Assembly: GCA_030619095.1 (NCBI GenBank)
Contig: JAUXCB010000001.1
Coordinates: 1-32,134 of the forward strand
Length of the DNA stretch: 32,134 bases
DNA from: Verrucomicrobiota bacterium
Lineage (GTDB): Bacteria; Verrucomicrobiota; Kiritimatiellia; Kiritimatiellales; Tichowtungiaceae
Direction: 5' to 3'
Part shown: positions 14,395 to 21,625 of the stretch, piece by piece
Position numbering within the stretch: position 1 is the stretch's first letter
How the letters are laid out: every line of letters begins with the position of its first letter
Position numbers and translations under genes: made by a program
The notes under the pieces: generated by a model
The model's database searches: none
What the model was told of the DNA's origin: nothing
What the model saw: only the letters and a program-made list of their open reading frames with translations

Positions 14395-14480
14395 GGCAGA
14401 ATAATTGAGGGCAGAATAATTTTCACACCCAACCGCAACTGAAGAGGTAATCATTCTCCTGCCTTAAAATGATTCTGCCC
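14395..14480. mobile_element. Gene-less inverted doublet repeat (MITE-like)
   Basis: Left arm GGCAGAATAATT x2 (14395 and 14410, period 15). Right arm on the minus strand GGCAGAATCATT-TTAA-GGCAGGAGAATGATT (14449-14479). Confidence 0.55.
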
Positions 14481-18436: not shown

Positions 18437-18445
18437 ACCCAGAGT

Positions 18446-18480
18446 TCCAAACCTTGACAGTATTGTGTCCAAGGTTTGGA
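18446..18480 (+). terminator. Hairpin after the vWA gene formed by two TTCCA-N5-TGGAA-type units
   Basis: TCCAAACCTTGACA-gtattg-TGTCCAAGGTTTGGA, 10 bp after the stop codon. Confidence 0.45.
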
Positions 18481-18542
18481 CATTTCCTTGTGTAACTTTT
18501 TTGAATTACAAAGTTAAACTCAACACGAACCGGGAGAATACT

Positions 18543-18769: not shown

Positions 18770-18840
18770 AATGCACGGGGCGCATAGAGTGTTTGGAAAA
18801 ACTCGACGCTACAGCTTCCACGCATTGGAACTCCGGCGCT

Positions 18841-18906: not shown

Positions 18907-19518
18907 CTACCGTTGCAACAGATGTTCGCGGTAGTAGGCGAGTTCGGCGGCGGAGGCGACGATGTCGTAGTAGGCATCGTGCTGGCGCAACCGGCGCAGA
19001 TCCGCCTCGGGGAAATATTTTTTTACGTTTTTGGCGTCATTTTTATCGAAGTCCGCCCCCTCAGTCAGATCGAGCCACTGAACCTTTAGGGTGGAAACAT
19101 CGAGTAGACGGTAATGTAACCGGCTGACGAAGGTTGGGAAAAATTTACGCGCGAGAATCCAGTCGTTATGCACACTGTTGCCAGCCATCAGCGGTCTCTT
19201 TTTGATGGTTTTTGTTGGCGTGCCGCACCAGCGATCAATAAAAGCCGTGAGCTTTTCGTCGATCTCTGCCACCGGAATGGCGTCGCGTGAGCGGCACTTT
19301 TTGACCAGATCGGGCAGATTCTTCTGCACCCAGGCACTGATCGGAACATTCTTTGCGGCGCGGACGTAAAAATTAACATCCTCCTCCGGCGGCGTGAGCC
19401 GCTTGAGGTCTTTATCGGTGAGCATCACGGAGACCTGAAGCAAATTCGCTTCGTCGAGATCAAGCGAAGTGAACTCGGTATCGAACCAGACGTAGGCTGT
19501 GGAAGGGATTTTTTTCAT
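18907..19518 (-). CDS. orn: Oligoribonuclease-like DEDDh exonuclease
   Basis: VWFDTEFTSLD, LMAGNSVHND, LHYRLLDVSTLK and HDAYYDIVASAAELAYYR motifs. Confidence 0.82.
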   Translation of the reverse strand: MKKIPSTAYVWFDTEFTSLDLDEANLLQVSVMLTDKDLKRLTPPEEDVNFYVRAAKNVPISAWVQKNLPDLVKKCRSRDAIPVAEIDEKLTAFIDRWCGTPTKTIKKRPLMAGNSVHNDWILARKFFPTFVSRLHYRLLDVSTLKVQWLDLTEGADFDKNDAKNVKKYFPEADLRRLRQHDAYYDIVASAAELAYYREHLLQR

Positions 19519-19537
19519 AAGACTAAGAAGTGTTTAT

Positions 19538-20405
19538 TTCACAAGATGATGGACAACAAGATTATTTTTTAAGAGTGATAAGCTGAATCTTCTCCCGATT
19601 AAAATTCACCCACTGCAATTGCTTTAACGGAGTATGATTAAGCAACTTGAGCAACTGCTTTTTATAAGATTCAAAATGTCGAATTATTGAGGATACGTGC
19701 AAACAGGTCTGTTCATCCAATCGACATATTTTTTGGTACCCAACAATCTTTCCTGCCACAACAACTTCTACAGGCTGTATCAACGCATCTTCCCCGCCAA
19801 GAAAATGATGGATCGCCTCCCGATACAAACCCACATCCAAAAACGCACCCCAGTTCGTTAGTAATTTTTGAACGATATCCCGAATGGATAAACTTGAAGG
19901 AAGCTCTGCCTGCCATGCATCCTCATTCATCTCAAAGGCCATTCGTTTTTCAGCACTCAAATTCGTTGTCACAAAACGATGCTGAACGGAGGGTGAGGAA
20001 AAATTAATCAGTTTTCCAAACTGCAAATCAGAAAGTAACAGATAGTTCAACGTTTGCGCCTCATGCGTTCCGCCTAATAAATCGACCGCCTTCAGCTCAT
20101 AAATTGAACCGGCGTTCACTAAAGCGTCGATAAAATACGATTTTTTAAACGATTCACAGGAAACAACAATTTCACCCTCCGACAAAACGTTTAATCCGCT
20201 ATTTAAACAATGGCGGATCAGTTCGGCATGGTAAACGTGTTCATCATAAAAACGCCCCAATTCATTTTGAATATCAAACGCATGACCCATCACAAGGTGA
20301 TCAATCTCGTAGAATTGAGATCGGGAAGGCGGTTCGACATCAAAACAGCACTCGATTGGCATCAGAATCTCCAAGAAATCATCTTGTTGTCCATCATCTT
20401 GTGAA
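19538..20405. mobile_element. Inverted-repeat-bounded GxxExxY cassette
   Basis: TTCACAAGATGATGGACAACAAGAT at 19538-19562 is the exact reverse complement of 20381-20405, extending inward to 33 bp with 2 mismatches. Interior visibly AT-richer than the flanks. Confidence 0.7.
19562..20362 (-). CDS. GxxExxY (PD-(D/E)XK-fold) protein with a second degenerate GxxExxY-like domain
   Basis: LGRFYDEHVY, IDALV...YELKAV and HEAQTLNYL...GKLINF, then WGAFLDVGLYREAI...QLLKLL...LQWVNF. Start ATG at 20362 with a GGAG RBS. Confidence 0.85.
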   Translation of the reverse strand: MPIECCFDVEPPSRSQFYEIDHLVMGHAFDIQNELGRFYDEHVYHAELIRHCLNSGLNVLSEGEIVVSCESFKKSYFIDALVNAGSIYELKAVDLLGGTHEAQTLNYLLLSDLQFGKLINFSSPSVQHRFVTTNLSAEKRMAFEMNEDAWQAELPSSLSIRDIVQKLLTNWGAFLDVGLYREAIHHFLGGEDALIQPVEVVVAGKIVGYQKICRLDEQTCLHVSSIIRHFESYKKQLLKLLNHTPLKQLQWVNFNREKIQLITLKK

Positions 20406-20425
20406 CTCGATCCGAACAAGCCAAA

Positions 20426-21625
20426 TCAAGCATTCAAAATATCAAAGGTGTCGGATGCGATCACTTTCTCCTCATCCGTGTGGATGACCAGCGCGGCCAC
20501 CTTGGACTCGGCCGTGGTAATCACCGTCTCATTGGCCTCGTTGGCGGCGTCATCCATCTTCAGCCCGAGATAGGTAAAGTTTTCGAGAATCAGCTTCCGG
20601 ACGGTGCGCTCGTTCTCGCCAATACCCGCCGTGAAGACGATTCCGTCGACCCCGTTTAGAGCGGCGGCGTAGGCACCGATATACTTCTGAACTTCATAGA
20701 CAAATTTTTCAATCGCCTGCGTGCAGCCTTCGAGTCCTTTGCGGTAGCCCTCCATCGTGTCGCGCATGTCGCGGTTCCCGCACAAGCCGAGGAGTCCACC
20801 CTGCTTATTCATCAGAGAGCTGACCTGATCGACCGTCATATCCTGCGTCTGCATAATATGCAGGGGGATATAGGGATCGAGATCGCCAGAGCGGGTGCCC
20901 ATAAGAATACCGGCCAGCGGGGTCATTCCCATTGAGGTGTCGACAGATTTCCCACCTTCAAAAGCAGTGATTGAACTGCCATTGCCAAGATGGCAGGTGA
21001 TCAGCTTGAGTTCTTCCAAGGGTTTACCAAGGGCTTCAGCGGCTTGCGCAGCCACGTACCCGTGAGACGTCCCGTGGAATCCGTAGCGGCGGATTTTATG
21101 GGTGGTATATTGGGTTTTTGGCAGGCCATAAAGATAGGCTTTCGGCGGCATGGTCTGGTGAATGGCCGTATCGAAGACCGCCACCTGTTTCATCGTGGGT
21201 TCCAACTCGTGAATGGCCTGAATTCCCATCAGATTCGGTGGATTATGCAGCGGCGCCAGCACAGAATTATCGCGAATAGCCTTCACGACATCGCCATTGA
21301 TCAGAACCGACTTTGAAAAATCTTCGCCACCATGAACGACTCGATGCCCCACCCCGGAGAGATCGCCCAGACTTCGGAGTGTATTTTTTTCGGGATCCGT
21401 CAGCAGTTTGAAAATCGCGTTGATCGCCTTTTTATGATCGGGGAGATCCAAGTAGATATGCTCCCTGTGCTCACCCTCTCGTTTGCAGTCTACACTGGCT
21501 CCGGAAATGCCGATGCGATCGGCCCCGCCCTGAGCGAGAACTTTGAAATCGTGATTGTCGCCGGTCACCTCGTAGAGTTTGTATTTGATCGAGGAAGACC
21601 CCGAATTAATTACCAGAATTTTCAT
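20426..21625 (-). CDS. ackA: Acetate kinase
   Basis: ILVINSGSSSIKY, GHRVVHGG, APLHNP, RRYGFHGTSH, HLGNGSS and FTAGIGEN motifs. Confidence 0.97.
   Translation of the reverse strand: MKILVINSGSSSIKYKLYEVTGDNHDFKVLAQGGADRIGISGASVDCKREGEHREHIYLDLPDHKKAINAIFKLLTDPEKNTLRSLGDLSGVGHRVVHGGEDFSKSVLINGDVVKAIRDNSVLAPLHNPPNLMGIQAIHELEPTMKQVAVFDTAIHQTMPPKAYLYGLPKTQYTTHKIRRYGFHGTSHGYVAAQAAEALGKPLEELKLITCHLGNGSSITAFEGGKSVDTSMGMTPLAGILMGTRSGDLDPYIPLHIMQTQDMTVDQVSSLMNKQGGLLGLCGNRDMRDTMEGYRKGLEGCTQAIEKFVYEVQKYIGAYAAALNGVDGIVFTAGIGENERTVRKLILENFTYLGLKMDDAANEANETVITTAESKVAALVIHTDEEKVIASDTFDILNA

Follow-up and report, generated by a model that had tools for sequence, protein, structure and literature searches.

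An apparently mobile one-gene nuclease cassette with inverted doublet arms at an ackA-orn junction in a Verrucomicrobiota bacterium

In the window, that is, the whole stretch of 32,134 nucleotides that was analysed, a single open reading frame lies on the minus strand between ackA (20426..21625, minus strand), which is upstream, and an orn-like RNase_T exonuclease gene (18907..19518, minus strand), which is downstream. The frame starts at an ATG at 20362, ends with its stop codon at 19562 and encodes a protein of 266 aa. It is enclosed by two arms of 25 bp, an upstream arm at 20381..20405 and a downstream arm at 19538..19562, which are exact reverse complements and whose pairing extends inwards to 33 nt at 94% identity (19538-19570 and 20373-20405). 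This arm pair is the longest among 13 inverted pairs within 5 kb. Each arm carries two ACAAGATNAT words 15 nt apart, which in the upstream arm appear as two ACAAGATGAT words at that spacing. An earlier, sequence-only reading of this DNA had described the perfect repeat, its extension, the single enclosed gene and the spaced words, and all of these are found as it described them, as are the ribosome-binding site beside the other arm, a GGAG word at 20369..20372 (minus strand) that abuts the extended upstream arm, and the higher AT content of the cassette (GC 40.8%, against 52.9% in orn and 53.2% in ackA). Its placing of the stop codon within an arm holds for the extended downstream arm, which covers the TAA at 19562-19564, but only one base of this codon falls inside the perfect 25-mer. 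Likewise, of the neighbours that it named, ackA passes TIGR00016, but the downstream gene has oligoribonuclease as its best model under the cut-off of that model (81 vs 106 bits).

The identification of the enclosed gene as a GxxExxY nuclease gene stands for the N-terminal half of the protein, which exceeds both curated cut-offs, with 72.7 bits against 35 for TIGR04256 and 73.2 against 22 for PF13366. The sole frame matches these two models alone, in agreement with the observation that no DDE, HUH or recombinase gene lies inside. Because the models, which are 116-117 positions long, cover residues 19-128 only, the protein is twice the length of the GxxExxY family; GxxExxY / PDDEXK_3 members are single domains of about 120-140 aa. 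The motif is also altered: it reads G-R-F-Y-D-E-H-V-Y, with no literal GxxExxY, and F or L occupies the position of the motif's G in 111 of 115 homologues. In a structure model built from 115 homologues (pLDDT 96) the order helix-helix-three strands-helix-two strands occurs twice. The N-terminal domain (19958..20362, minus strand) has D79 and E89 in all 115 homologues, K91 in 114 and E41 in 114-115, and it matches the BpuSI structure at a middling Z of 8.0 (rmsd 2.3, 91 aligned) and that of Cas4 SSO0001 at Z 7.9. In the model this half is an intact PD-(D/E)XK nuclease fold, and its activity is predicted. The top Foldseek match, Wolbachia CinB, was set aside, its rmsd of about 14 being unusable.

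The C-terminal half (19565..19936, minus strand) conserves W171, G172, Y180, H222, S224, Y233 and W251, has H222/S224 in place of E89/K91 of the N-terminal half, and lacks the acidic catalytic set. The profile match between the halves is weak (E 0.08), and the match of this half to a profile of 44 short-form frames has an E of 0.0013 over 105 columns with a probability of 18%. Modelled alone it reached a pLDDT of 50, too poor for a structure search; it has no Pfam match, and its matches in the structure atlas are GxxExxY clusters only. The secondary-structure order of the model together with the weak profile scores suggests that this half is likely a second, catalytically dead copy of the fold. 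The protein would then be a one-chain pseudo-dimer with a single active site and, likely, a nickase: because each chain has one intact and one degenerate active site, we infer nicking rather than double-strand cutting. Those relatives of the protein that are named belong to Kiritimatiellales and other Verrucomicrobiota, one of them, 54% identical, being encoded by the cultured Pontiella desulfatans, and the atlas clusters also include Planctomycetota. In one paper PDDEXK_3 is listed with the function 'Unknown' and with multiple transfers (PMC3424549), which accords with the statement of the sequence-only reading that GxxExxY proteins have no established function.

A search for an empty site in relatives, proposed in that reading, succeeded. 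We found orn in 22 of 24 relatives from the genus of the host, and among the 21 in which the junction is readable, 20 are empty between ackA and orn and one (G015) has a remnant. In the 20 empty alleles the two genes abut or overlap, with an aligned gap of -4 to 11 nt, overlapping stop and start codons and no scar. From this comparison the cassette is an insertion at the junction of the ackA stop and the orn start. The inserted sequence includes a leader of 20 nt (20406..20425, minus strand), with a weak resemblance to a decayed orn 5' end, and a trailer of 19 nt (19519..19537, minus strand), both of which lie outside the arms and are missing in the empty alleles. The arms can therefore not be the terminal repeats that they had been taken for. 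The gap in G015 (L010) is 128 nt long and ends in the outer downstream arm and the same trailer, most of the cassette being replaced there by a GC-rich palindromic repeat. In another family, six genomes have ackA-orn gaps of 100-148 nt without the gene, and two genomes have no ackA beside orn. The trailer is also common to a metagenome contig (L035) in which this site is filled by the same cassette, with a protein that is 82% identical. Between the host genome and this contig the gene is 82.5% identical in DNA, ackA 67% and orn 78%; at fourfold sites, where the divergence is 0.40 in the gene, 0.48 in orn and 0.50 in ackA, the three are not clearly separated. A host clade of the three carriers is rejected by both flanking genes (AU p 1.5e-30 for ackA and 5.8e-4 for orn), as is a clade of the two complete carriers (1.5e-7 and 0.032), and the nearest neighbours of the carriers on these trees are empty and scar-free. 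On these gene trees, the carriers of the ackA-orn cassette do not form a host clade.

The absence of a target-site duplication is borne out for short duplications, but the sequence to the left of the cassette may include a degenerate copy of the orn 5' end. In L035 the signal for such a flank duplication was reached in 0 of 2000 shuffles. In the host genome it was reached in 2 of 2000 if the first bases of the arm are included and in 182 of 2000 if they are not, for segments picked after inspection, and in wider windows the ackA-orn loci fail the test (33/300 and 5/300 shuffles). A general long target duplication was rejected, as direct similarity of the flanks occurs at only 4 of 55 loci, two of which are repeats of a whole hairpin.

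Our results also suggest that the cassette has changed junction. The two ackA-orn cassettes are sister to the nadC-coaX cassettes of two genomes, G001 and G008 (support 100/99), and the pair is nested inside the nadC-coaX clade, the monophyly of the nine nadC-coaX copies being rejected by a modest margin (p-AU 0.033). From this nesting we conclude that a move to a new junction is supported by the sequence comparison. A survey of 30 nadC-coaX loci gave three complete cassettes, one remnant, one gene-less pair of the same word, one single word, 14 short empty junctions, nine other repeat inserts and one longer insert. The cassettes of G001 and G008 at this junction are 99.5% identical in the gene, while their flanks are 80.8% and 77.1% identical and their ackA and orn genes 81.1%; the identical tract runs from 12 nt before the nadC end to within about the first eight codons of coaX. 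No other pair points so strongly to a recent transfer into a cognate site, and comparison of gene and flanks thus supports transfer between species into the same junction. Both genomes are metagenome assemblies, and L036 and L037, their second records, may repeat the same data. Because most other same-site pairs diverge about as their flanks do, as under vertical descent, and only one pair is decisive, such transfer seems to be rare. The mobility that had been proposed for the cassette is thus supported by the change of junction, by the scatter of its carriers over the host trees and by the transfer between species. As side observations, the nadC-coaX cassette of G015 is split over two contigs (L165, L151) by unrelated sequence, and five loci (L046, L047, L048, L055 and L057) have cassette genes 70-86% identical with flanks that do not cluster. 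The latter are a candidate burst of moves to new sites, on contigs several of which are short and with sites that are partly resolved.

The flanks of homologues had also been suggested as a place to look for inverted arms. Our set comprised 114 loci, 103 of them with the long form of the gene, and 83 after the removal of 12 duplicates and 8 cut loci. Of the 83 unique long-form loci, 69 have an inverted repeat with a score of at least 12; the same score was reached in 2 of 415 shuffles, in 1 of 83 controls placed inside genes and in 12 of 83 controls in direct orientation. Neither result that would have told against the sequence-only reading, a lack of empty alleles in relatives or a lack of inverted repeats beside homologues, was therefore obtained. 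The remaining 14 loci have no good inward inverted repeat; some of them have outward-facing or directly repeated hairpins. In three loci (L090, L111 and L124) a long-form gene stands between direct copies of the whole hairpin or in an array of them, and recombination between such copies would leave a gene-less hairpin. The arm word is a 10-mer and is common to cassettes at unrelated junctions. When the long-form set was enlarged to 91 loci, 79 had a doublet common to both flanks, with a spacing of 14-16 nt in 77. In the short form, for which 43 of 48 loci were usable, 35 share a doublet, with a spacing of 8-11 nt in 27 and of 16-19 nt, roughly double periods, in the other eight. Other two-domain forms, which have different words (contig C38 of the host genome; L178-L181), have a word spacing of 17-20 nt at 4 of 5 loci. 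This correlation of spacing with protein architecture does not count as many independent events, since the two share ancestry. The exact 15-nt doublet is present in both inward arms at 47 of the 91 loci; in these the arm spacers are 0.84 identical within their own cassette and 0.45 across sites, and at 31 of them stop codon and downstream arm overlap in one common register. Within the host genome, 8 of 10 GxxExxY matches (tblastn) are flanked on either side by inverted arms with a word particular to that match, mostly between co-oriented genes; of the other two, one is truncated where its contig stops and the other has the downstream arm only. The suggested new mobile element is a member of a large arm-gene-arm family and not a one-off element with terminal repeats.

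Arm pairs of the same word also occur without a gene. The host genome has 44 doublets of the arm word, against 5-8 in shuffles, and nine gene-less and three gene-filled inward pairs, against none in five shuffles (13 inward pairs were listed, and one that reuses an arm was removed). The gene-less pairs are never inside a long open reading frame, with the exception of one 12-nt overlap with an alternative frame, so that they are over-represented extragenic inverted pairs, as REPINs are. One pair of this word family lies in the window at 14397..14477, upstream of a thyX-like gene. Another, on contig C70, has one arm identical to that of the cassette described here and is located at a methyltransferase-NUDIX junction; of 28 relatives, 9 have only a short gap there, and many have other hairpins.

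We propose that the cassette spreads by arm-directed nicking, a reading to which we give a probability of about 0.45. The two-domain nuclease would bind the inverted doublets of the 10-base word in the arms of its own cassette and would nick at or near them, making the ends of the cassette recombinogenic. Host recombination would then carry it to the corresponding junction in related species and, on rare occasions, to a new one, and gene-less arm pairs could be mobilised in trans. Pairing of the arms in the operon mRNA may bring the upstream stop near the downstream start, which would make the insert tolerable. The arm is the simplest substrate, because its word is constant across unrelated junctions and its spacing follows the protein architecture; it is by this correlation of spacing with architecture that the supposition made from the sequence, a nuclease that recognises its own doublets, is supported. 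A PD-(D/E)XK nuclease hydrolyses DNA and cannot rejoin it, and integration would therefore need host repair. Such a dependence fits transfer to the same site with short flanks, ragged ends and no regular target duplication.

The reading that survives next best, and which we consider rather unlikely, is classical intronless homing. Here the empty allele would be cut by the nuclease in or close to the junction and would gain a copy of the cassette during repair, and the arms would be an autoregulatory operator or an mRNA stem and not cut sites. PD-(D/E)XK homing endonuclease families are known, according to the part of PMC6083498 that treats them. Filled and empty alleles with transfer into a cognate site, as seen with homing endonucleases, are present here, the carriers are patchy, the nearly identical cassettes of G001 and G008 occupy one site in two species, and most protein clades keep to one insertion site (on a quick tree, 10 site groups take 10 changes, against 37 if shuffled). 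The upstream arm abuts the ribosome-binding site. A divergent patch of ackA beside the cassette also resembles co-conversion. Contigs from four sequencing runs match the window, cassette included, and come from otherwise near-identical strains, but differ from it at 13 positions in the last 100 nt of ackA (20444..20537; 10-13 differences where covered), and the version in the window was not seen in those four runs. The patch fits co-conversion but may also stem from the assembly, and none of 22 related loci matches either allele. Against this reading, proteins that are 68% identical are found at unrelated junctions while the arm word stays constant, and arm pairs that contain no nuclease gene have multiplied all the same. 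The borders of the recent transfer, moreover, lie within about 12-25 nt, whereas free-standing phage enzymes, in the sections of PMC2988022 that describe them, cut hundreds or thousands of bases away. If the enzyme does cut the empty allele, the element would fall among the free-standing homing endonucleases.

A less probable explanation, and in our view an unlikely one, places the function of the arms in RNA: they would form an mRNA stem for RNase III processing or for restoring translational coupling, in the manner of rRNA intervening sequences, with the gene riding along and ordinary recombination spreading it. Fold prediction for the mRNA does give a stem of 33 bp that the arms form round the gene (z -5.2, 20 shuffles), the arm spacers co-vary within a cassette and the inserts are located at stop/start junctions. 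Pairing, however, needs neither a fixed word nor a fixed spacing of 15 nt, and both are strongly conserved; the catalytic residues are invariant, and relocation to a new junction requires a DNA event.

It is more doubtful still that the arm pairs are REPIN-like and moved in trans by another enzyme, such as a Y1 RAYT-like transposase, with the GxxExxY gene as a captured spacer. The gene-less inverted doublets resemble REPINs as these are presented in the consulted part of PMC3116915, and the host genome has 12 Y1_Tnp matches. Of the 12 Y1 genes, however, only 1 has the doublet in its flanks and 6 lie within another repeat that belongs to them, and word and spacing are particular to each GxxExxY type. 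Those six Y1_Tnp genes (contigs C76, C142, C224, C150, C197 and C33) encode about 340-360 aa, and each lies inside its own inverted repeats of 21-27 nt that start with GGGGTCAG, the same arm-gene-arm design with another enzyme. A domesticated host function, for example in defence or hairpin maintenance, with vertical inheritance and frequent loss, is equally doubtful: PF13366 genes occur in 33 of 33 genomes of the genus (2-18 matches each) and most same-site pairs track their flanks, but the empty alleles are scar-free with overlapping stop and start codons, the carriers are scattered, and PADLOC, against which a defence system was also tried and rejected, gave no match.

By analogy, the cassette that we suppose to nick its own arms works most like a hybrid of REPIN/RAYT systems and intronless homing. 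With REPINs, in the account given in the accessible portion of PMC3116915, it shares extragenic, inverted, hairpin-forming pairs with many gene-less copies and the tie of each repeat type to its own single-copy nuclease gene. It differs in that its enzyme is a PD-(D/E)XK nuclease and not a Y1/HUH transposase, that its arms are tandem word doublets where those of REPINs are palindromes, and that its gene forms the spacer and has moved to another site and another host, while RAYTs are described there as not self-mobilising (PMC3116915). With the seg and mob genes of phage T4, to the extent that PMC2988022 covers them, it has in common a single intergenic nuclease gene, site-specific clades, patchy presence, cognate-site transfer between relatives and possible nicking. 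Unlike those genes it is found at chromosomal operon junctions, with none in viral contigs, and it has conserved inverted arms, gene-less derivatives and very short co-converted flanks (PMC2988022). ORF-bearing intervening sequences of 23S rRNA, as portrayed in the relevant passages of PMC4990558, likewise have a small, horizontally acquired ORF in a base-paired stem within a host transcript; the cassette differs from them by its nuclease fold and its fixed word and spacing, and this identity was rejected since it stands between two protein genes, not in an rRNA gene, and no structured RNA family has an Rfam match in the window.

Insertion sequences have terminal inverted repeats round one gene, and MITEs are non-autonomous arm pairs. 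The cassette resembles both in its inverted repeats round one gene and in its gene-less, non-autonomous arm pairs, but it has no DDE, HUH, serine or tyrosine recombinase, its arms are not the exact ends, and there is no regular target-site duplication. Nor does the host assembly, which is 81% complete, contain near-identical copies, the nearest paralogues being 40-45% identical. For its arms, its target and its lack of multi-copy spread an insertion-sequence identity was rejected. GxxExxY / PDDEXK_3 proteins are the closest in the N-terminal half, and the degenerate second domain, with the double length, altered motif and longer arm spacing that go with it, sets the cassette protein apart from them. 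Judged by the defining features of each neighbouring family, several of which are missing here, the cassette may be of a new kind.

The cassette is real, by sequence comparison mobile and apparently undescribed, and its mechanism is what we infer; no description of the arm-gene association was found in the literature searched, which includes few subscription journals. We tentatively propose, with slightly less confidence than in arm-directed nicking as such, that transposase-free PD-(D/E)XK cassettes which nick their own arms use host recombination to colonise stop/start junctions across species and leave families of gene-less hairpins behind. Duplication of the nuclease to a form with one active site would go with a change in spacing from about 9 to 15 nt, a protein-to-repeat code, and GxxExxY proteins would have their function in a new class of prokaryotic mobile element. 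If true, this would explain a large class of intergenic hairpins and would constitute a way for DNA to move without a transposase or a recombinase. The function of GxxExxY becomes directly testable, because a candidate substrate (the 10-mer doublet with its spacing of 15 nt), the position of an empty site, a move between junctions and a recent transfer between species are now available.

Excised or empty forms, which had been expected in read data, were not found in the contigs of eight sequencing runs, contigs being prone to drop rare variants, and no joint connects the host flanks. In two runs there are joints across 19568-20378 with sides of less than 30 nt and 17-31 other letters between them; given these short sides and foreign letters, we take them for gene-less arm pairs from other places or organisms. 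A phage was rejected as vehicle, with no relative in viral contigs and no PHROG match, and so was a plasmid, with one short-form match among 72,556 plasmids. A contig of run X7 over 19552-20302 holds a further allele of the cassette, about 92% identical and from another organism. The nadC-coaX (L185-L214) and methyltransferase-NUDIX (L246-L274) junctions are hot slots, where different species have hairpins from three or more unrelated families; given this variety of other hairpins, the junctions may admit inserts quite generally. Elsewhere in the window, short inverted repeats of the type TTCCAA...TTGGAA are located at 18439-18482 and 18787-18836, downstream of a VWA-domain gene, and repeats of this type recur in the junctions of many relatives.
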